NCBI GenBank assembly: GCA_902478365.1
Contig: CABSKX010000001.1
Location: forward strand, 21,342-85,341
DNA: 64,000 nt
DNA from: an uncultured Collinsella sp.
Lineage (GTDB): Bacteria > Actinomycetota > Coriobacteriia > Coriobacteriales > Coriobacteriaceae
Direction: 5' to 3'
Shown in pieces: positions 27,909 to 63,090 of this stretch (position 1 is its first letter; every line of letters starts with the position of its first letter). The translations under genes were made by a program, and so were the position numbers. The notes below the pieces were generated by a model. That model did not search any database. It was not told the DNA's origin and worked only from the letters and a program-made list of their open reading frames with translations.

Positions 27909-27941
27909 AATGTGACAAAGGGACTGTCCCTTTGTCACATT
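27909..27941. repeat. 33-bp perfect palindrome, family ATGTGACAAAGGGnCnGTCCCTTTGTCACAT
   Basis: Sequence aatgtgacaaagggactgtccctttgtcacatt, located 3 bp after the stop codon. Confidence 0.9.
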
Positions 27942-41269: not shown

Positions 41270-41303
41270 AATGCGACAAAGGGGCTGTCCCTTTGTCGCA
41301 TCG
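41270..41303. repeat. palindrome of the GACAAAGGG family
   Basis: Sequence gaatgcgacaaaggggctgtccctttgtcgcatc, between the MFS and oxidoreductase genes. Confidence 0.9.
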
Positions 41304-52118: not shown

Positions 52119-52151
52119 AATGTGGCAAAGGGACAGCCCCTTTGCCACATT
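52119..52151. repeat. palindrome of the GACAAAGGG family
   Basis: Sequence aatgtggcaaagggacagcccctttgccacatt. Confidence 0.9.
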
Positions 52152-52176: not shown

Positions 52177-52273
52177 TATAATCTCAAATCTCTGCATTTC
52201 ATTTGATTTTAAGTTCTATAAATTCTGCGTTTCATCGATAATCAAGCGTATAAAACTTTGCATTTCATTCGAT
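52177..52273 (+). promoter_or_regulatory. perfect TATAAT box followed by three direct repeats CTGCRTTTCATYNGAT at exact 33-bp phasing
   Basis: TATAAT is at 52177-52182. The repeats start at 52192, 52225 and 52258, and the last ends 20 bp before the ATG at 52293. Confidence 0.5.
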
Positions 52274-52292
52274 GACGCTGAGGGGAGAGCCT

Positions 52293-53654
52293 ATGCTGCG
52301 CAGGAAAATAGCGGCAGAGCTGGAGCGTTGGCTGAAGTCTGCCGAGCAAAAGGCCTTATTCATTACGGGTTCTCGCCAGATTGGCAAAAGCTATTCGATT
52401 CGCGCATTTGGCAAAGCCAACCATGCAACCTACATCGAGCTTAACCTCATGGAAAATCGCCAGGCAAAAGATGCTCTTCTCGAGGCGCGGGATGCCGATG
52501 ATTTCATCAGCAGGGTGACGCTTCTTTCGGGAAAGTCGATTGCACCAGGCAAAACGCTCGTGTTTATCGATGAGGTCCAAGAGGCCCCCGACATCATGAC
52601 GATGGCAAAGTTCCTTGTTGAGGACGGGAGGTGCCGTTGGGCGTTTTCGGGGTCAATGCTCGGGACCCAGCTCAAGGGCGTCAGGTCCTATCCCGTGGGG
52701 TATGTCCACGAGCTTAGGATGTTCCCGCTCGATTTTGAGGAGTTTTGCTGGGCAATCGGGGTGAGCGAGGGGGCTCGTCAAACGATACGTGACGCGTGTA
52801 TCAGCGAGAGGCCCATTCCTGATTACATTCATGACGCGATGATGGCAAACTTCAGGACCTATACCGTTGTCGGCGGAATGCCGGAGGTTGTGCAGCGTTT
52901 CCTTGACACGCAGGGCGACCTTGCCTCTGTTCGTCGGCTACAGTCAGAGCTCAACGAACAGTACCGGCGGGATATCTCCAAGTATGCAAACGGGCGAGCC
53001 CTGCAGGTGCAGAGCATCTACGATCAGCTCCCTATTATGCTCGAGGGCGAAAACAAGCGCTTCGTGCTCAATTCCATTGACCCCAAGGCTTACTACGAGA
53101 AGTATCAGCGAGATTTTGTATGGCTTGTCGATGCCGGCGTTGCTCTCAAAGCCGATATCGTAACCGAGCCAAAATCGCCCCTGCTCAAGACGGCGCGGCC
53201 ATCGCAGTTCAAGCTATATCAATCGGATACGGGCATGTTGATGGCGCGCTACCCCGTTGGAGTCGCCCAAGCGGCGTATCTTGATAGCAAGGAGCCCAAT
53301 CTGGGCGGCATTTACGAAAACGTGGTGGCCCAGCAGCTGGCTGCCCAAAATCGCCAGCTTTACTACTATCAGACAAAAAAGCGCGGTGAAGTGGACTTTG
53401 CGGTCGATGGACCGGATGGGACGGCTGTTCCGATCGAGGTTAAATCGGGCTCCTATTACCACGCGCACGCTGCGCTCGGTCATGTGCTTGATACGGCTGA
53501 ATATGGCGTAAGGCTCGGGATTGTTTTCTCGAGAGGCAACGTTGAGCGCAACGGAGCGGTTCTCTATTTGCCTCTATATGCGACCTGGGCCCTTTCGGAT
53601 GTTTTGGGCGACTCCTGTGCCAAGGGGATTAAGCTGGAGGTCAAGCCGGTCTAG
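52293..53654 (+). CDS. AAA-family ATP-binding protein with C-terminal DUF4143-like domain
   Basis: Walker A is ITGSRQIGKSY and Walker B is LVFIDEVQ. The architecture and length match the widespread AAA_14/DUF4143 proteins. RBS is GAGGGGAG. Confidence 0.75.
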   Translation: MLRRKIAAELERWLKSAEQKALFITGSRQIGKSYSIRAFGKANHATYIELNLMENRQAKDALLEARDADDFISRVTLLSGKSIAPGKTLVFIDEVQEAPDIMTMAKFLVEDGRCRWAFSGSMLGTQLKGVRSYPVGYVHELRMFPLDFEEFCWAIGVSEGARQTIRDACISERPIPDYIHDAMMANFRTYTVVGGMPEVVQRFLDTQGDLASVRRLQSELNEQYRRDISKYANGRALQVQSIYDQLPIMLEGENKRFVLNSIDPKAYYEKYQRDFVWLVDAGVALKADIVTEPKSPLLKTARPSQFKLYQSDTGMLMARYPVGVAQAAYLDSKEPNLGGIYENVVAQQLAAQNRQLYYYQTKKRGEVDFAVDGPDGTAVPIEVKSGSYYHAHAALGHVLDTAEYGVRLGIVFSRGNVERNGAVLYLPLYATWALSDVLGDSCAKGIKLEVKPV

Positions 53655-53779: not shown

Positions 53780-54229
53780 CTACAGCTGCTCGAGCATAGC
53801 GGTGCAACCGGCGAGCACATCGCGGTAGGTGGCATCGAAATTGCCGGTGTACCAGGGGTCGGCCACGTCGCCGGGACACTCGGTCCAATCGAGCAAGCGC
53901 GTAATCTTTCCGTCGGGGCCTGCGTCGCCAAAGATGCGACGCAGGCCCCGCGCGTTCTCAGCATCCATATAGACAATGTGATCCCAGTCGCCATACTCCG
54001 CGCGACGCACCTGGCGGGCACGGTGCGCAACGACGGGAATCCCGACTTCGCGCAGCTTGGCGACCGTGCCATGATGCGGCGGGTTGCCGATCTCCTCAGT
54101 TGAGGTCGCAGCGGAGTCAATGACAAACTCGCCCGCGCGCCCGGCGCGCCGCACCAGCTCGGTAAACACGGACTCAGCCATCGTCGAGCGACAGATATTT
54201 CCATAGCAGATAAAAAGAATGCGTTGCAT
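53780..54229 (-). CDS. low-molecular-weight protein-tyrosine phosphatase
   Basis: P-loop is ILFICYGNICRSTMAE, and the DPWY Asp loop lies near the C-terminus. Confidence 0.85.
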   Translation of the reverse strand: MQRILFICYGNICRSTMAESVFTELVRRAGRAGEFVIDSAATSTEEIGNPPHHGTVAKLREVGIPVVAHRARQVRRAEYGDWDHIVYMDAENARGLRRIFGDAGPDGKITRLLDWTECPGDVADPWYTGNFDATYRDVLAGCTAMLEQL

Positions 54230-54262: not shown

Positions 54263-55633
54263 TTACAGACTGCTCTTGAGGCAGTTTGCTCCAATAAAGC
54301 CCGCTGCGTACAAGGGGAGGTGGCGCAGCTCGCGCCCGTCATCGGTTTCGCTGCGGGAAAAATTGTTCTCGGACAAAATGTAGGCATATGGCGATCGGGC
54401 TTTGTCCATAAACGACCCGAGGGTTCTCGCGCGCACGTTACGTGCGGACTTTACTTCGACGGGCACAATTTCCATACGGTCGGTCTGAAGTAAAAAATCG
54501 AGCTCGCCGGTCGTCTTCCAAGACGACGGCGGCACCCAGTAATACGTCTGCAAGCTATTGCCCGAAAATGCTTGCATGACCGAGTTTTCCGCCAGGGCGC
54601 CTCGGAAGTCGGAAGATAGCGCTATGGCGGAATCCTCTTTGAGGTCGAGCCAGAGCCGCGGGTTGATGCCGAGTTTGTAGAACATGAGGCCGGTATCGAG
54701 AAGATAGACCTTAAAGAAACTTCCATCTTCGTCGTCGAAGGGAACGAGGGGAGGCTCGATGCCTTCGGTCAGGTTGTTGACCGATATGATGCCGGCGCCT
54801 TCGAGCCAGTCGAGCGGCTCGATAAGCTTGGCGCGACGGCCTCCGCGTTCGACCTCGGAGTACTTGAATTTTTTTGTGGACGATCTCAGCAGCTGGGACG
54901 GAATGGAGCGCCAGACCTTGCGCGCCGCCACGCCGCTGATCCCGTTTTCGGGGTCGGTCATATCGGCGGTATAGGTCTCGTCGATTTCGCGCTGCTCGAC
55001 GCGCGCATCCTCGATGGATAACGTCTTGCGATATGCGTTGACGGCGGCGGGCATGCCGCCCACGATCTGGTATCGATGAAACAGGCTGAGCGCGGCTTGG
55101 TGCGCGGCGTAGGTCTCGAGCGTGCCGGCGTGGGTACGAATGGCATTGGCCATCTGCTCCTCGTCGAGCGCCCAGAGAAACTCCTCGAACGACATAGGAT
55201 GCATGGTCTCTTGACGAACGCCGCTGGGAAAAGGCAACTTGCGCTTGCGCGTGGCGACGCCGAGCTGACTGCCGGTCGCGCATATGCGCCAGCCCGAACC
55301 CGAAAAAAAGCGAAGCGAGTTGAGCGCCCGTTCGCAGAGCTGCACCTCGTCAAACAGGATGAAGGCGGTTTCTTTGCGAATGGGGGTGCGTTTATAGTCT
55401 GAGATTCGCGCCACGATGGCGTTAACGTCGTCGGTGGGACAGTCGAACAGCGGAGCGATCAGCTCAAGATCGGTCTGAAAGTCGAGTTTGACAAACGCAT
55501 CGCCGGCGATTCGTCTGCCGATTTCCTCGGCAACGTACGTTTTGCCTACGCGTCGCGCACCACGGATGAGGAGGGGGCGCGACGCGTCCTTTGTCGCCCA
55601 TGATTCGATAACGGATTCGATTGATCTGCGCAT
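54263..55633 (-). CDS. AAA-family ATP-binding protein with C-terminal DUF4143-like domain (paralogue of 52293-53654)
   Basis: Walker A is IRGARRVGKTY and Walker B is FILFDEVQ. The length and layout match the other copy. Confidence 0.75.
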   Translation of the reverse strand: MRRSIESVIESWATKDASRPLLIRGARRVGKTYVAEEIGRRIAGDAFVKLDFQTDLELIAPLFDCPTDDVNAIVARISDYKRTPIRKETAFILFDEVQLCERALNSLRFFSGSGWRICATGSQLGVATRKRKLPFPSGVRQETMHPMSFEEFLWALDEEQMANAIRTHAGTLETYAAHQAALSLFHRYQIVGGMPAAVNAYRKTLSIEDARVEQREIDETYTADMTDPENGISGVAARKVWRSIPSQLLRSSTKKFKYSEVERGGRRAKLIEPLDWLEGAGIISVNNLTEGIEPPLVPFDDEDGSFFKVYLLDTGLMFYKLGINPRLWLDLKEDSAIALSSDFRGALAENSVMQAFSGNSLQTYYWVPPSSWKTTGELDFLLQTDRMEIVPVEVKSARNVRARTLGSFMDKARSPYAYILSENNFSRSETDDGRELRHLPLYAAGFIGANCLKSSL

Positions 55634-57138: not shown

Positions 57139-57172
57139 GAATGTGACAAAGGGGCAGTCCCTTTGTCACATG
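57139..57172. repeat. palindrome of the GACAAAGGG family, in the divergent promoter region
   Basis: Sequence gaatgtgacaaaggggcagtccctttgtcacatgg. Confidence 0.9.
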
Positions 57173-57243
57173 GAGGGCTTGCCTGTATAGTCGCAATACA
57201 GGCGAAGATGGTCTCAGGTACATCGCGGGCGGCAGGAGATCCC

Positions 57244-58191
57244 ATGGGTATGCACACGACAAAGGTTGCAGTGGGCGAGGGCAAGTTTGCGCTCGAGGCC
57301 CAGCTGACGGTGACGCCGCGAGGCATGGCGGTGTACGCCTGCTCGCCGGAGTTTGCGCACCTGGGCGCCACGGCGCAGGCCATTCCGCGCCCCGAGCCCG
57401 GCCGTACGGCAACGGTGAGCATCCTGGCCGTTCCGTGCCATCGAGACGAGATCCCGGCGCACGATATCGCGGCGGCGCTGGCCACGCGCTTTGGCGTGCC
57501 GGTAGTTGCAAGCACGGGTTTTCATGTTGAACAAGCGAGCGGTGACGACCTGCAGCGCGTGCTCGACACCACCAAGGAGCTCATCGCCGCGCTCGAGGAA
57601 GCCGCAGCCCGCATTCTGCGCGCCGGCTGGGATGAGGGCGGTGCGGGCGCCGAGGTCGTGGCGGTCGATGCTGCGACCGGCGAGGCGCTTGGCCCCGTCG
57701 ACCGCATCGAGGCCCATGCTGGTGAGGGCATCCTGCATCAGGCATTTCTGACGCTTTTGGTCGAGGGCCGGGGCGAAGACGCGCGCCTGCTGCTCTGTCG
57801 CCGCAGTCCGCTCAAGCGCCTGTGGGGCGGGGTGCTGGCCGATAGCTGCGCCGGCCATCCGCTCCCCGGGGAAGACGTCGCGGCCGCCACGGCGCGCCGC
57901 ATCAACGAAGAGCTCGGCATTACGCGCGAGCCCGATCAGCTCAAGCACCTCGGACACGTGGTGTACCGCGAGGACCACGGCGACAGTCGCTGCGAGTGCG
58001 AATGGTGCGAGGTCTACCTTGCCCATGTTGAGCCGGGCGAGCTGCATATCAACCAAGAGGAGATCTCGGAAGTGCGTCGCGTGGCTCCGTCCGAGCTCAA
58101 AGGCTACCTGCAGGGTCACCCCGAGCAGCTGGCCCCCTGGCTCCGCGAGGCCCTCGGCGACCCATTCATCCGCACGGCCCTCGCTATGTAA
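57244..58191 (+). CDS. fusion protein: LpdD-like prenylated-flavin chaperone domain + type-1 IDI / Nudix domain
   Basis: The ATG at 57244 follows AGGAG. N-terminal motifs are EFAHLGA, VPCHRDEIPAHD and TGFHVEQAS. C-terminal motifs are ILHQAF, RLWGGVLADSCAGHP, the Nudix box G-HPLPG-E-DVAAATA-RRINEELGI, and ECEWCE. Confidence 0.7.
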   Translation: MGMHTTKVAVGEGKFALEAQLTVTPRGMAVYACSPEFAHLGATAQAIPRPEPGRTATVSILAVPCHRDEIPAHDIAAALATRFGVPVVASTGFHVEQASGDDLQRVLDTTKELIAALEEAAARILRAGWDEGGAGAEVVAVDAATGEALGPVDRIEAHAGEGILHQAFLTLLVEGRGEDARLLLCRRSPLKRLWGGVLADSCAGHPLPGEDVAAATARRINEELGITREPDQLKHLGHVVYREDHGDSRCECEWCEVYLAHVEPGELHINQEEISEVRRVAPSELKGYLQGHPEQLAPWLREALGDPFIRTALAM

Positions 58192-58432
58192 AAAAGACAG
58201 TCCCTTTGCCACATCCAAACCGTCACAACATTCGGCGAAAATCTCGAAAACGAGGAAAAGCGTCGAATGTTGTGACGGTTTTTGTCTAGGGAATCGCTTC
58301 TCATCCAAAAAATCCGCTTGACTGTATTGCCGCAACACAGCGCAACGTAAGGGGTGTCCGATAACGGGCGCCCCTTTTTAAGCGGCAACATGGCTGCGAA
58401 TTCGGAGCGCCCCCAACAAGAAAGGTGGGGAG

Positions 58433-59890
58433 ATGGAAGCGGAAAAGAAGGCGTTTAAGATCACCAAGCGCGAAATTGGCTTTGTGCTGGGTATCGTTGT
58501 CTTTTTGCTGGTGAAGTTTCTTCCTTTGGCGGAGCTGAGCTCGACGGTCGAGCTCACGGTCGGCGGTCAGACCTGTCTGGCACTGACGCTCGCCACGGTG
58601 GTGTTCTGGGCATGCGGCGTGGCACAGCCGGGCTTTGTGGGCCTGCTCTACTGCGCACTGCTCGTCCTGTTCAAGGTGTGCGTGGACGACACGGGCGCCG
58701 CGAGCATCTCGGCGACGGTCGCCTCCACGTTTAGCTCGTGGACCAAGGCCACCATGTGGCTCGTCATCGGCGCCTACCTCATCGCCAGCGCGGTCAAGGA
58801 GTCGGGCCTGGGCGAGCGCATCGCCTACGCGTTCATGCTCAAGTTCGTGCGCGACGCCAAGTCGCTCATCATCTCGATCTTCGCGCTCACCTTTGTGCTG
58901 TCGCTGCTGATCCCGCATCCGTTCCCCCGCGCCTTCCTCATCCTCGCCGTCGTCTCGGTCATCGCCGAGTCCGCCGGCTACGGTGACGACGACAAGGGCA
59001 AGCTCGGCTTCCTCGTGTTTGCCGCTGCCGCCCCGGGTTCCATGTTCTTCCTGACGGGCGACTCCACGCTTAACCCGCTCGTTGCGCAGTACAGTGCCGA
59101 GGCCGGCGGCATGAGCCCGTCCTTCGTCGACTGGTTCCTGTACATGAGCGTGCCTATGCTGGTTGCGCTGCTGTGCACCCTGTTCCTGGGCCTTTTCCTC
59201 TTTAAGCCCAGCAAGGAGCTCGTCTACGATCGCGAGCAGATCGTGGCCAAGCAGGCCGCGCTCGGCAAGCTCTCCGTCAAGGAGATCCGCACCATCGTGT
59301 GGCTTGTCATCGCCATCGCGCTGTGGCTCACCGTCTCGGGCGACTATATCGGCTGGGTCACCCTGGCCATTGGCGTTGCTCTCGCCATGCCCATCATCGG
59401 CGAAGTCCTCACTCCCGCCAGCTGGAACGCTGTCGACATCAAGTCCCTCATGTTCCTGACGGCCGCCATGGCCGTGGGCTCCGTGGGCGGTGCCACCGGC
59501 ATGAACGCCTGGATCGCCGACGTCGTGCTCCCCAGCTCCGTGCCTGAGAACATCTTCCTGTTCGCCCTGCTCGTCGCCGCGCTTTCCATGATCATCCACA
59601 TGTTCATGGGCTCGGTCATGGCCGTGCTCGGCGTGTGCGTGCCGGCATTTATCAGCTTTGCCGCCGGCTCCAGCGTGAGCCCACTCGCCGTGGCGCTCAT
59701 CGTCTTCACGTCCATCAACATCCACTACATCCTGCCGTTCCATAACCTGCCGATCCTTATCGGCGAAGGCAAGGCCGCCGGCGGCTACACCTCCAAAGAG
59801 GCTATGCGCATGGGCATCCCCCTCACCGCGGTCGTCTTTGTCGTCGTGCTGGTCGAGGCCGCCTGGTTCCACCTCTTTGGCCTGATGTAA
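58433..59890 (+). CDS. anion permease of the DASS/SLC13-ArsB/NhaD superfamily
   Basis: About 12-14 TM segments with a two-fold internal repeat. RBS is AAAGGTGGGGAG. Confidence 0.7.
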   Translation: MEAEKKAFKITKREIGFVLGIVVFLLVKFLPLAELSSTVELTVGGQTCLALTLATVVFWACGVAQPGFVGLLYCALLVLFKVCVDDTGAASISATVASTFSSWTKATMWLVIGAYLIASAVKESGLGERIAYAFMLKFVRDAKSLIISIFALTFVLSLLIPHPFPRAFLILAVVSVIAESAGYGDDDKGKLGFLVFAAAAPGSMFFLTGDSTLNPLVAQYSAEAGGMSPSFVDWFLYMSVPMLVALLCTLFLGLFLFKPSKELVYDREQIVAKQAALGKLSVKEIRTIVWLVIAIALWLTVSGDYIGWVTLAIGVALAMPIIGEVLTPASWNAVDIKSLMFLTAAMAVGSVGGATGMNAWIADVVLPSSVPENIFLFALLVAALSMIIHMFMGSVMAVLGVCVPAFISFAAGSSVSPLAVALIVFTSINIHYILPFHNLPILIGEGKAAGGYTSKEAMRMGIPLTAVVFVVVLVEAAWFHLFGLM

Positions 59891-60032
59891 GCGGTCGAGC
59901 GCCCCGGCTGTAAGCAGCCAAGCGCTTGAACTTCGAGTGGTCGAGCGCTCCATTTGTGAGCGCCGCGGCCCCATTACGTTACCCCGTCCGGCGGCACCCC
60001 GTCGCCGGACACTCTCCCGAAAGGAGTACGCC

Positions 60033-61520
60033 ATGTCCACTACCGATGCTTCCCAGATCCACGACCTGCGTTCCGCGCTCGACTTTTTGCGTGAGATGCC
60101 GGGCCAGCTGCTCGAGACCGACACCCAGGTCGATCCCGATGCCGAGGTCTCGGGCGTCTACCGTCACGTCGGTGCTGGCGGCACCGTCATGCGCCCGACC
60201 AAAGAGGGTCCGGCGATGGTCTTCAACAACGTCAAGGGCTTTGACGACGCCAAGGTCTGCATCGGTATGCTTGCCAGCCGCAAGCGCGTTGCCGCCCTGC
60301 TCGACCTGGACGAGGAGCACCTGGGCCTCGAGATCGGCAAGCGCTTCGAGAACCTGATCGCCCCCGAGCAGATCGCCGAGGGCAAGCACGTCGACTGCCA
60401 GGAGGTCGTGTACAAGGCGACCGACGAGGGCTTTGACCTGCGCAAGATCGTTCCCGCTCCCACCAACACGCCCGTTGACGGCGGCCCCTACATCACCATG
60501 GGCCTCGCCTATGGCACGAGCCCCGATGGCACCCAGTCCGACGTAACCATCCACCGCTTCTCCTGCGTCGACAAGGACAAGCTCGCCATGTGGATCACCC
60601 CGGGCAGCCGTCACCTGGGTGCGTTCTTTGACGAGTACTGCCAGCGCGGCGAGGATATGCCCATCTCCATCTCCATCGGCCTGGACCCCGCCGTGTACAT
60701 GTGCTGCGGCTTCGAGGCTCCCACCACGCCGCTCGGCTTCAACGAGCTGCAGATCGCCGGCGCCCTGCGCGGCCGCGCCGTCGAGCTTGCCGACTGCGTC
60801 ACCGTTCCGCAGAAGTGCATTGCCAATGCCGAGTACGTGCTCGAGGGCTACCTCATGCACGACGAGACCATCAACGAGGATGTCAACGGCCACGGCTACG
60901 CCATGCCCGAGTTCCCCGGCTACACCGGTGGCGCCAAGGTCTGCCCGGTGATCAAGATCACCGCCGTCACCACGCGCGTCAACCCCATTATGGAGAGCTG
61001 CATCGGCCCTTCGCACGAGCACGTGTCCATGGCCGGTATCCCCACCGAGGCCTCCATCTACAAGATGGTCGAGACCGCTATCCCGGGCCGCCTGCTCAAC
61101 GTTCACGCCGCTCCCTGCGGTGGCGGCAAGTTCGTTGCCATCATGCAGTTCAAGAAGTCGAGCAAAAATGACGAGGGCCGTCAGCGCAACGCCGCCATGC
61201 TCGCCTTCTCGGCGTTCTCCGAGCTCAAGCACGTCATCCTTGTCGACGAGGATGTCGACATCTTCGATATGAGCGACGTGATGTGGGCCATGACCACGCG
61301 CTTCCAGGCCGACGTGGACCTCATCACCATCCCCGGTTGCCACTGCCACGTGCTCGATCCGTCCAACGACCCCGCGTTCGATCCTTCGATCCGCGAGCAC
61401 GGTATCGCCTGCAAGGCCATCTTCGACTGCACGGTTCCGTTTAACCTCAAGAAGAACTTCATCCGCTCGCAGTTCATGGAGATCGACAAGGACAAGTGGG
61501 CCGCCGAGCTCGCCTTCTAG
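60033..61520 (+). CDS. UbiD family (prenyl-FMN dependent) decarboxylase, LpdC/aromatic-acid decarboxylase-like
   Basis: The ATG at 60033 follows AAGGAG. It is about 495 aa. The N-terminus reads LRSALDFLREMPGQLLETDTQVDPDAEVSGVYR...AMVFNNVKGF. Confidence 0.85.
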   Translation: MSTTDASQIHDLRSALDFLREMPGQLLETDTQVDPDAEVSGVYRHVGAGGTVMRPTKEGPAMVFNNVKGFDDAKVCIGMLASRKRVAALLDLDEEHLGLEIGKRFENLIAPEQIAEGKHVDCQEVVYKATDEGFDLRKIVPAPTNTPVDGGPYITMGLAYGTSPDGTQSDVTIHRFSCVDKDKLAMWITPGSRHLGAFFDEYCQRGEDMPISISIGLDPAVYMCCGFEAPTTPLGFNELQIAGALRGRAVELADCVTVPQKCIANAEYVLEGYLMHDETINEDVNGHGYAMPEFPGYTGGAKVCPVIKITAVTTRVNPIMESCIGPSHEHVSMAGIPTEASIYKMVETAIPGRLLNVHAAPCGGGKFVAIMQFKKSSKNDEGRQRNAAMLAFSAFSELKHVILVDEDVDIFDMSDVMWAMTTRFQADVDLITIPGCHCHVLDPSNDPAFDPSIREHGIACKAIFDCTVPFNLKKNFIRSQFMEIDKDKWAAELAF

Positions 61521-61553: not shown

Positions 61554-62132
61554 ATGCCTGAGTCTTCTGTTCGTCCCCGTCGCATTGTCGTTGGCGTGTC
61601 TGGCGCCAGCGGTGCGGCACTGGGCCTTGAATGCCTCAAATGCCTGCGCCAGGCCGGCGCTGAGTCGGCGCTTGTCGTCACGCGCGGGGGAGAGATCACC
61701 ATCGAGCAGGAGCTCGGCATGACGCTCGACGAGTTTGCGTGCTATGCCGATGTGGTCTACGACAACAAGAACATTGGCGCTGCCATCGCAAGCGGCACCT
61801 ATCCGGTCGACGGCATGATCGTGGCTCCCTGCTCCATGAAGACGCTCGCCGGCATCGCGAGCGGCTACAGCGAAAACCTGTTGCTGCGTGCGGCCGATGT
61901 GCAGATGAAAGAGCAGCGCCGCCTGGTGCTTATGGTGCGCGAGACGCCCTTCAGTGCGATCCATGTCGACAACATGGCACGCCTGGCGCGCGTGCCGGGT
62001 GTCATGCTCATGCCGCCCATGCTCACGTTTTACAACGGCCCCGCCACGCTCGATGAGGCGGTGCATCACATCGCCGCCAAGGCACTCGAGGCCGTCGGCG
62101 TGTCGTGCGCCAACTATAAGCGCTGGTCATAG
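61554..62132 (+). CDS. ubiX: UbiX family flavin prenyltransferase
   Basis: Sequence RIVVGVSGASGAALG...VAPCSMKTLAGIASGYSENLLLRAADVQMKEQRRLVLMVRETP. RBS is AAGGAG. Confidence 0.9.
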   Translation: MPESSVRPRRIVVGVSGASGAALGLECLKCLRQAGAESALVVTRGGEITIEQELGMTLDEFACYADVVYDNKNIGAAIASGTYPVDGMIVAPCSMKTLAGIASGYSENLLLRAADVQMKEQRRLVLMVRETPFSAIHVDNMARLARVPGVMLMPPMLTFYNGPATLDEAVHHIAAKALEAVGVSCANYKRWS

Positions 62133-62165
62133 GCATCTTTAGGGTAGGATACGAGTAGTGTTTGA

Positions 62166-62195
62166 GCCCGCTGCCCCTGTGGGCGGCGGGCTTTT
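62166..62195 (+). terminator. rho-independent terminator after ubiX
   Basis: Stem gcccgctgcc / ggcggcgggc, then tttt. Confidence 0.7.
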
Positions 62196-62223
62196 CGTGT
62201 CAAAGGGTGTGTCGGGAGGACCT

Positions 62224-63090
62224 ATGCAGACGGGTATGTATGCGATTAGCGAGATGGCGAGCTTGTTTAACGTTTCGCGCCAAACGCTCATCTACTACGA
62301 CAAGATCGGTCTGTTTAAACCCGCCGTGGTTAACGAAAAAGGCTACCGTTTCTATTTGCCCACGCAGATCCCGCTCATGCGTCTGATCTGCATGCTGCGC
62401 AACTTGGGACTGGAACTCGATGAGATCGATCGCCTGACCTCGACGTTCGACATTGGAGAGATGACCGATCACCTGCGCTCGCGGGTGCAGGCGCTCGACG
62501 AGCAGATTGCCGGGCTCAAAGCCGAGCGCGCGAGCGTGCAGGAGCGGCTGAGTTTTTACGACGAGGCGGTCTATTGGCGCGAGCGCGAGGGCAAACCGGA
62601 GCTCAAGCAATTCGAGCGCCGCTACGTGGTCTTTGAGGAGTTCCCGAGCGATATCGAGCGTGGCCGCTCGATGCTGCACCCCACGCTCATGCGGGCGATT
62701 CTGCGCATGCGTGCGCTCACGGGCACACGCCCCATGCGCGGTTGGGGCGCCATGCTGCGTTGCGAGGCGCTGCATTCCGACGACCCCATCGCCGGTGCCG
62801 GTTCCTTTGCCGTGTTGCCGCGTGGTGCCGAGGAAATACTGCCGAGCGATCCTGCCGAGCTGGCGGAGATTGGCGTCGAGGTGCTGCCCGAGGGCACGTA
62901 CCTGTGCATGAGTCGCTGGGGCATGCCGTACGAGCCCGAGGGTATCCGCGCCATCGTGGCCTGCATGGACAGGCACGCGCTCCAGCCCATCGGCAATGCT
63001 TTCGATTTTTGCTACCTGGACACCACGAGCTACGACGAGTCTCACCAAGAGGACTTCTGCTGTATCCAAATCCCCGTCGCCCTCAAATAA
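62224..63090 (+). CDS. MerR family transcriptional regulator with C-terminal effector-binding domain
   Basis: HTH region is YAISEMASLFNVSRQTLIYYDKIGLFKP...KGYRFY, followed by a coiled-coil linker. The ATG at 62224 follows GGGAGGA. Confidence 0.8.
   Translation: MQTGMYAISEMASLFNVSRQTLIYYDKIGLFKPAVVNEKGYRFYLPTQIPLMRLICMLRNLGLELDEIDRLTSTFDIGEMTDHLRSRVQALDEQIAGLKAERASVQERLSFYDEAVYWREREGKPELKQFERRYVVFEEFPSDIERGRSMLHPTLMRAILRMRALTGTRPMRGWGAMLRCEALHSDDPIAGAGSFAVLPRGAEEILPSDPAELAEIGVEVLPEGTYLCMSRWGMPYEPEGIRAIVACMDRHALQPIGNAFDFCYLDTTSYDESHQEDFCCIQIPVALK

Follow-up and report, generated by a model that had tools for sequence, protein, structure and literature searches.

UbiD-family decarboxylases are widespread and are wanted as biocatalysts, and many of them cannot be activated in heterologous hosts. 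To our knowledge, LpdD is the only known chaperone of reduced prenylated flavin mononucleotide (prFMN; prFMNH2 when reduced). The LpdD of Lactobacillus plantarum (lp_0272; PDB 8PO5, 8PZO, 8P4W and 8PZH) is a stand-alone protein of about 130 amino acids, which is encoded together with a UbiX homologue and used with a decarboxylase of the AroY/LpdC type (PMC10865409). Characterised in 2024, it binds prFMNH2 and activates UbiD enzymes, and mutation of His35, which forms a Mn2+ site with His61 and Asp63, abolishes prFMNH2 binding (PMC10865409). Here we describe a gene at positions 57244-58191 of a 64,000-nucleotide stretch of DNA from an uncultured Collinsella sp. (GenBank assembly GCA_902478365.1, contig CABSKX010000001.1, positions 21,342 to 85,341; hereafter the window). 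Its product joins an LpdD-type domain to a 187-residue C-terminal domain resembling type-1 isopentenyl-diphosphate isomerase (IDI). On balance, we think it probable that this fusion is a conserved two-domain prFMN accessory protein, combining supply of the prenyl donor with hand-over of the finished cofactor.

Two other described systems are close to the role proposed here. UbiX needs dimethylallyl monophosphate (DMAP), the cellular source of which is partly known: the recorded sources are promiscuous Nudix enzymes and ThiM (PMC12359138). In E. coli, NudJ, NudB, NudF and NudI convert dimethylallyl diphosphate (DMAPP) to DMAP and ThiM acts as a prenol kinase, and these enzymes thereby hold the donor-supply role that we propose for the fusion (PMC12359138). 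Like the C-terminal domain of the window protein, the Nud enzymes have the fold of the Nudix superfamily, and NudJ appeared in our PDB profile search as a weak match (E 0.029). Unlike the fusion, however, the Nud enzymes and ThiM are promiscuous housekeeping proteins that are not IDI-like, are not joined to a chaperone and are encoded outside UbiX/UbiD loci, and the Nud enzymes have canonical Nudix boxes. The prFMN maturases PhdC and YclD are, like the fusion, small cofactor-directed accessory proteins encoded with UbiX and UbiD (PMC13040415), but their flavin-reductase-like fold is unrelated, they act by oxidising the prFMN radical, and they are not connected with the metabolism of the prenyl donor.

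The fusion appears to be undescribed, as the first-pass annotation of the window had supposed. Full-text searches found no paper describing an LpdD-IDI fusion and none in which LpdD, isopentenyl and UbiX occur together. The papers naming LpdD with a decarboxylase concerned lactobacilli, reviews and UbiD enzymology, none of them the fusion, and none of those containing both "isopentenyl diphosphate isomerase" and prFMN was about an LpdD-IDI fusion. The paper that characterised LpdD mentions neither Nudix nor isomerase, and the word "fusion" occurs in it solely in the name of the In-Fusion cloning kit (PMC10865409).

Two protein families in one reading frame

The two modules lie in a single open reading frame (ORF) of 315 codons and a stop, without interruption, as had been reported in the first-pass annotation. 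An AGGAG motif stands 5 nucleotides upstream of the ATG at 57244, and homologues start either at the same Met or at a Met two codons further on. All of the motifs quoted earlier were found in the translation: AHLGA (residues 38-42), VPCHRDE (63-69) and TGFHVEQ (91-97) in the first module, and HQAF (165-168), SCAGHP (201-206) and CECEW (250-254) in the second, where G-x5-E-x7-R-R-I-N-E-E-L-G-I occupies residues 204-226. In a Pfam search both halves exceeded their gathering thresholds. PF21758 matched residues 12-119 with 65.7 bits in the full protein and 67.9 bits in the half alone (E 4e-18; threshold 27), while PF00293 (NUDIX) matched residues 165-298 with 60.5 bits (threshold 21.1). The local Pfam copy lists PF21758 as "PAC_bac"; in the newer release, used for the precomputed annotation of the homologues, its name is "LpdD_chaperone".

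A single-sequence phmmer search of the N-terminal half against the PDB gave no match, even at E 10. With a profile of 19 fusion homologues (52-94% identity) L. plantarum LpdD was reached at E 8.9e-4, and with a profile of 21 N-terminal and stand-alone domains the LpdD chain 8po5_A was reached at E 4.5e-10 (42.5 bits), the whole chain being aligned and no family besides LpdD falling under E 0.03. Residues 1-128 were also modelled separately for a fold search. The AlphaFold2 model (pLDDT 94.2, pTM 0.89) has a Pba3/4-like fold with a long final helix at residues 100-127, and its top Foldseek match in the PDB was again 8po5_A (E 1.8e-6, TM 0.73-0.83, root-mean-square deviation 2.4 Å). The next matches were the proteasome-assembly chaperones PAC3/PAC4 and Pba3-Pba4, a group that LpdD is known to resemble.

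In the profile alignment, His35, His61 and Asp63 of LpdD, which lie in its PHIG and FHKD motifs, correspond to His39, His66 and Asp68 of the window protein, and these three residues are invariant in the 19 fusion homologues. Pfam, the PDB profile match, the fold and the metal triad all agree, and on sequence and modelled structure the N-terminal half belongs to the LpdD family of prFMNH2 chaperones. The likeness to LpdD that had been proposed from motifs was therefore sound, but not the SHDG motif, since the LpdD counterpart of CHRDE is FHKD. The two proteins have in common PF21758, the Pba3/4-like fold, the metal triad and a GxH motif, whereas their identity in the structural alignment is only about 13%, and binding of prFMNH2 by the window domain is a prediction.

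The likeness of the C-terminal half to type-1 IDI was also borne out, in its fold and in its active-site residues. E. coli Idi was found by phmmer against the PDB at E 1e-13, and Salmonella Idi at 1.7e-29 with the homologue profile. The AlphaFold2 model of the full-length protein (pLDDT 91.1, pTM 0.83) retrieved only IDI and Nudix structures among its top 50 Foldseek matches, the best being E. coli Idi (1nfs and 1hx3; E about 1e-13, TMt 0.82-0.84). The proposed check against TIGR02150 returned a match, but at 73-75 bits it fell short of the equivalog cutoff of 105.8, and the cutoff of NF002995 (127) was narrowly missed with 122.9 bits for the full protein and 125.1 for the half. In E. coli numbering, the domain keeps the equivalents of the metal-site residues His25, His32, His69, Glu114 and Glu116, the Mg ligand Glu87, the diphosphate ligands Arg51, Lys55 and Arg83, the proton-donor pair Tyr104 and Glu116, and the carbocation-stabilising Trp161. 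The C-terminal half can accordingly be assigned the type-1 IDI fold on its sequence and its predicted structure.

One catalytic residue differs. The printed alignments set DSCAGHP of the window protein against NSVCGHP of wild-type E. coli and Salmonella Idi without an indel, and it follows that Cys67 is replaced by Ala203 (57850-57852), with Cys202 (57847-57849) at position 66. This agrees with the earlier remark that the Cys sits one residue upstream of its place in E. coli Idi. By sequence, then, the catalytic Cys67 has been lost, and the only Cys here is the one at position 66. The two best-scoring PDB chains, 1ow2 and 1hx3, themselves carry Ala at position 67, so that the window domain, which otherwise shares the fold and the metal, diphosphate, Tyr104 and Trp161 residues of E. 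coli Idi (PDB 1NFS, 1HX3 and 1OW2), is nearer to inactive C67A mutant chains than to the wild type.

Conservation of the fusion and its linkage to UbiX and UbiD

A word-indexed protein search returned 133 clusters, most of them with both Pfam domains at 54-96% identity, and one 90% cluster of the fusion has 10,574 members. Those with an organism name belong to Collinsella species and to Coriobacterium glomerans PW2. The architecture is thus already present in public databases as PF21758+PF00293, mis-named or under-named, the entries being called "isopentenyl-diphosphate Delta-isomerase" or "NUDIX hydrolase". In a GTDB-based genome collection the fusion was found in at least 542 species-level genomes. 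These matches are dominated by near-identical Collinsella proteins (the best 80 of the at least 542 are from Collinsella or close relatives, at 99-100% identity, by which the window belongs to the C. aerofaciens group), and the taxonomic breadth given here comes from the representative search and contig look-ups. Four distant fusions (P0122, P0123, P0126 and P0129) emerged when the C-terminal half was used in an exhaustive HMMER search. They have 41-44% identity in that half and about 30% overall by tblastn, and all four contain PF21758, NUDIX and C-[AS]-G-H. Because the LpdD triad and all IDI active-site positions except 67 are invariant in the 19 fusion homologues, both halves are judged from their sequences to be under purifying selection.

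Many metagenome-derived sequences are rearranged (P0050, P0065, P0111, P0060, P0051, P0014, P0112-P0119, P0114, P0049 and P0054). In-frame deletions take away the LpdD domain, either as residues 19-115 at a shared GCGCTCGAGG (clusters of 113 and 405 members) or, in a Collinsella genome from NCBI, as residues 55-153; further variants show deletions within the IDI domain, frameshifts and junctions to other genes. They may reflect real differences between strains or errors of assembly.

The intact ORF recurs across the species-level genomes, and homologues with as little as 30% identity are fused too, which rules out a frameshift or missed stop in the window as the source of the fusion.

The genes around the fusion are also conserved. 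It had been asked whether the fusion is conserved and always linked to ubiX and ubiD, and this proved true of every locus with enough flanking sequence. In the Collinsella loci with such flanks the order is always fusion-DASS-UbiD-UbiX, followed by MerR where the contig reaches that far. Coriobacterium glomerans has fusion-UbiD-DUF554-UbiX-MerR, and in five other lineages the order is LysR / UbiD - small EcdD/BsdD subunit - DASS - UbiX - fusion. The partner UbiD is AroY-like in some loci and VdcC-like in others, the latter with 26% identity to the window enzyme. Since the linkage spans two UbiD subfamilies, the constant partner of the fusion is UbiX and the cofactor and not one particular decarboxylase. 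In one locus of this operon type a called gene of 652 amino acids combines DASS domains with a UbiX flavoprotein domain (L086:7425-9383), possibly as a transporter-UbiX fusion or as a gene-calling merge.

We also found the two families as separate genes. The nearest stand-alone relatives of the C-terminal domain carry S-C-[AS]-G-H-P, and in several Actinobacteria they are encoded with an unfused lpdD. One cluster has the order DASS-UbiX-IDI-like-LpdD (L088), another LpdD-UbiD-RibBA-IDI-like (L090), and three from metagenomes have DASS-UbiX-LpdD(-UbiD)-IDI-like (L093-L095). These loci have the same two families, the same Cys motif and the same DASS, UbiX and UbiD neighbours as the fusion, and differ from it in that the genes are separate and stand in either order. 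In L095 lpdD lies immediately 5' of the IDI-like gene, which is the order of the domains in the fusion. A metagenome scan with a 3-sequence alignment as query, in which the Cys class was read from hmmalign columns and loci of at least 5 kb were counted, found LpdD, UbiX and UbiD in 3/3 loci of the class without Cys67. LpdD was present in 0/43 of the canonical-Cys67 IDI loci in the same scan, and 13 of these 43 were carotenoid clusters. The window gene likewise departs from a typical idi, being joined to LpdD and accompanied by ubiX in place of isoprenoid or carotenoid genes. The split gene pairs beside ubiX are independent support, at the level of gene order and sequence, for a functional link between the two families.

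It could be argued that the fusion is incidental, either because a housekeeping IDI happened to join lpdD in an ancestor of the Coriobacteriia or because of an assembly or frameshift artefact. The fused form is confined to one lineage and LpdD stands alone elsewhere, and the metagenome-derived variants with in-frame deletions, frameshifts and chimeric ends would fit an artefact. LpdD is indeed normally a separate protein, as the first-pass annotation held: the 96 relatives of the stand-alone actinobacterial LpdD of L088 are all 114-174 amino acids long with PF21758 only, from hosts that include Negativicutes, Moorella, Desulfovibrio and Anaerolineae, and two sampled loci of this stand-alone group had no IDI-like neighbour. 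Yet the intact ORF is dominant in the 90% cluster and the genome collection, both halves are strongly constrained, and the linkage holds with either UbiD subfamily. The explanation is refuted by the split-gene synteny, the unfused pairs adjoining ubiX in other Actinobacteria in both orders, and we consider it very improbable.

The conserved fusion together with the unfused adjacency is a Rosetta-stone signal, indicating that the machinery of prFMN maturation includes a prenyl-donor enzyme, and it points to an undescribed prenyl-supply step for prFMN. In practical terms, the gene is an easily cloned candidate for co-expression with UbiX and UbiD, and a marker for loci of protocatechuate/gallate-type decarboxylation in the abundant Collinsella of the human gut.

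Further observations concern the make-up of these clusters. Two metagenome loci (L094:2-5351 and L093:3-4559) have two UbiDs, one VdcC-like and one AroY-like, around a single DASS-UbiX-LpdD core. In L090:95-3970 a RibBA (DHBP synthase/GTP cyclohydrolase II) lies between UbiD and the IDI-like gene without Cys67, as though the locus provided both the flavin and the prenyl half of prFMN. Canonical-Cys IDIs were also seen beside prFMN genes, directly upstream of ubiX in L153 (874-2324) and divergent from and adjoining ubiD-ubiX in L157 (2165-5119). As these canonical enzymes adjoin ubiX, recruitment of IDI to prFMN loci is suggested to extend beyond the clade lacking Cys67.

Possible activities of the IDI-like domain

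The loss of Cys67 is a property of a whole clade. Of its 103 members, 94 have Ala and 9 have Ser at position 67, with Cys at position 66 throughout, whereas 99/99 canonical relatives have Cys at position 67. In the 19 fusion homologues Cys202 is invariant and is followed by Ala, or by Ser in two. The other IDI active-site residues are kept in essentially all 103 members, and only position 67, Asp at E. coli position 110 and Ala at 159 distinguish the clade from canonical IDIs. A compensating catalytic residue was sought in the clade; just Asp110 and Ala159 emerged as candidates, neither of them conclusive. Elsewhere in the family, 21/224 IDI-like proteins examined form a third class without Cys at either 66 or 67 (V/I-A-S/T-H-P) in which the other active-site residues are kept; examples from the representative search are P0140, P0148, P0151 and P0164.

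In the reading that we favour, the C-terminal domain would bind isopentenyl diphosphate (IPP) or DMAPP and raise the supply of dimethylallyl donor for UbiX, and the LpdD domain would receive prFMNH2 from UbiX and pass it to the decarboxylase, as in L. plantarum. Joining them in one chain would ensure that, each time the decarboxylase pathway runs, donor supply and cofactor hand-over are expressed together and in the same place. Judged from the retained residues, the likeliest activity of the C-terminal domain would be isomerisation of IPP to DMAPP with a substitute base. Isomerisation is favoured because Glu116, Tyr104 and Trp161, the residues of carbocation chemistry, are all kept, because Cys-Ser relatives of the same clade sit in carotenoid clusters (L089 and L161), where an IDI is expected, and because canonical IDIs are sometimes recruited beside ubiX. 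The clade offers a natural IDI subclass that has no catalytic cysteine and the chemistry of which is open to testing.

Several points weigh against this. A serious objection is that the catalytic thiol at position 67 is gone throughout the clade; mutation of this Cys leaves the E. coli and yeast IDIs with essentially no activity. If the strand has the same geometry as in E. coli Idi, the Cys at position 66 would be expected to face away from the active site, and the NCBIfam equivalog cutoffs for IDI were missed. No prFMN gene lies within 8 kb of P0275 (L092), a Cys-Ala protein that stands alone. In the window, the fusion gene has a promoter-like site and a terminator of its own, and co-transcription with ubiX is at most putative. 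Finally, a further step would be required, since isomerisation gives DMAPP and the characterised bacterial UbiX enzymes take DMAP.

This last point leads to the main rival, in which the IDI-like domain has turned into a phosphohydrolase of prenyl diphosphates, taking DMAPP (or IPP) to the monophosphate, so that DMAP would be made beside the chaperone. The domain has a Nudix fold, the isomerase base is lost while the diphosphate and metal ligands are all kept, and Cys-Ala variants with genomic context are nearly always in prFMN clusters. It would also meet the need of UbiX for DMAP, for which the only sources known in E. coli are NudJ/B/F/I and ThiM (PMC12359138). No hydrolase signature has been gained, however. 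The first-pass annotation had described a complete Nudix box, and this description failed: in G204-x5-E210-x7-R218-R219-I-N-E222-E223-L-G-I an Arg stands in place of the first Glu of REUXEE, a substitution shared with canonical IDIs, so the sequence (RRINEE) departs from the full hydrolase box GX5EX7REUXEEXGU and is an IDI-type box that is not diagnostic for hydrolysis. The clade-specific changes are confined to the three positions named above, the invariant Trp161, Tyr104 and Glu116 have no obvious part in diphosphate hydrolysis, and hydrolysis would be counter-productive in the carotenoid clusters that house the Cys-Ser relatives. We therefore regard a phosphohydrolase as rather unlikely. 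The Glu-Glu pair of the box was considered separately as a sign of regained hydrolase activity and rejected; it is equally the rule in canonical IDIs (81/99), and for that reason it says nothing on hydrolase activity.

Alternatively, the domain may not turn over a C5 diphosphate at all. It might sense or hold the donor for UbiX, or donate a proton to a prenyl-flavin intermediate held by LpdD. Such a role would be compatible with the loss of Cys beside intact binding residues and an intact acid side of the active site, with the covalent tie to a domain predicted to bind prFMNH2, and with the high pTM of the full-length model, which suggests a defined two-domain arrangement. However, the metal site and the Glu/Tyr/Trp residues are strictly kept at about 40% identity, beyond the usual needs of binding, stand-alone members of the clade exist without LpdD, and the IDI pocket is suited to a C5 diphosphate in the established structures. 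It is hard to see either of these roles as more than a poor prospect.

A bolder proposal, to which we attach little probability, combines parts of these ideas. The domain lacking Cys67 would not be an IPP isomerase but an enzyme devoted to prFMN biosynthesis and physically tied to the prFMNH2 chaperone: either a specific DMAP synthase, acting as a DMAPP phosphohydrolase or as an isomerase between isopentenyl monophosphate and DMAP, or an acid catalyst that acts on N5-prenyl-flavin through Glu, Tyr and Trp. If this were true, donor synthesis, prenylation and hand-over would form one channelled pathway, the domain would be a new functional subclass of the IDI fold, and the source of the UbiX substrate in these bacteria would be explained.

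Neighbourhood and transcription of the window locus

The features of the locus are listed in Table 1. As noted in the first-pass annotation, ubiX lies about 3.4 kb downstream; it starts 3.36 kb after the stop of the fusion, with the AroY-type UbiD between them. The UbiD protein matches the protocatechuate decarboxylase of PDB 5o3m at E 8.8e-167, and its mechanical ORF begins at a GTG at 59937. Upstream of the fusion is a divergent MFS transporter gene.

Table 1. Positions of the fusion gene, its domains and the surrounding features in the window
Feature	Position	Strand	Description
Fusion gene (LpdD-type chaperone domain and IDI-like Nudix-fold domain)	57244..58191	+	315 amino acids
LpdD-family domain	57244..57627	+	Residues 1-128; Pfam PF21758, PDB profile match, model fold
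Type-1 IDI-like Nudix-fold domain	57628..58188	+	Residues 129-315
Metal triad codon, His39	57358-57360	+	Alignment to LpdD
Metal triad codon, His66	57439-57441	+	Alignment to LpdD
Metal triad codon, Asp68	57445-57447	+	Alignment to LpdD
Promoter-like site	57163..57191	+	TTGTCA-17-TATAGT; 10/12 consensus matches; one such site expected by chance in region
Terminator-like hairpin	58220..58283	+	15-bp outer stem CCGTCACAACATTCG / CGAATGTTGTGACGG, then TTTTT; folding
DASS-family (Na_sulph_symp/CitMHS) transporter	58433..59890	+	Syntenic in Collinsella and distant relatives
UbiD-family decarboxylase, AroY/LpdC type (protocatechuate/gallate class)	60030..61520	+	Pfam UbiD_N/UbiD/UbiD_C
UbiX-family flavin prenyltransferase	61554..62132	+	NF004685 214.5 bits (cutoff 188); TIGR00421 208.6 (108.9)
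MerR-family regulator, locus end	62158..63090	+	Kept after ubiX in Collinsella and Coriobacterium glomerans
Palindrome copy	27916-27934
Palindrome copy	41277-41295
Palindrome copy	52126-52144
Palindrome copy	57147-57165
Palindrome half-copy	~58196-58216

The hairpin after the fusion gene has a minimum free energy of -47.4 kcal/mol (z -9.0 against shuffles). Given a promoter-like site before the gene and a strong hairpin with a T-run after it, the fusion gene may be a transcription unit of its own upstream of DASS-UbiD-UbiX. A palindromic repeat, CAAAGGG-N5-CCCTTTG (in its longer form TGTGACAAAGGGGCAGTCCCTTTGTCACA), occurs 4 times in the window against 0 expected. One of the copies lies just 5' of the fusion gene, and its 3' end overlaps the promoter-like site. 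The palindrome looks like an intergenic repeat, comparable to repetitive extragenic palindromic elements, or an operator, and several mis-called ORFs have its translation at their ends.

The MFS gene and the fusion locus are immediately preceded by two paralogous AAA_14/DUF4143 ATPase genes (52272-53654 on the forward strand and 54263-55633 on the reverse strand), with a gene for a low-molecular-weight phosphotyrosine phosphatase (53780-54229, reverse strand) between these two.

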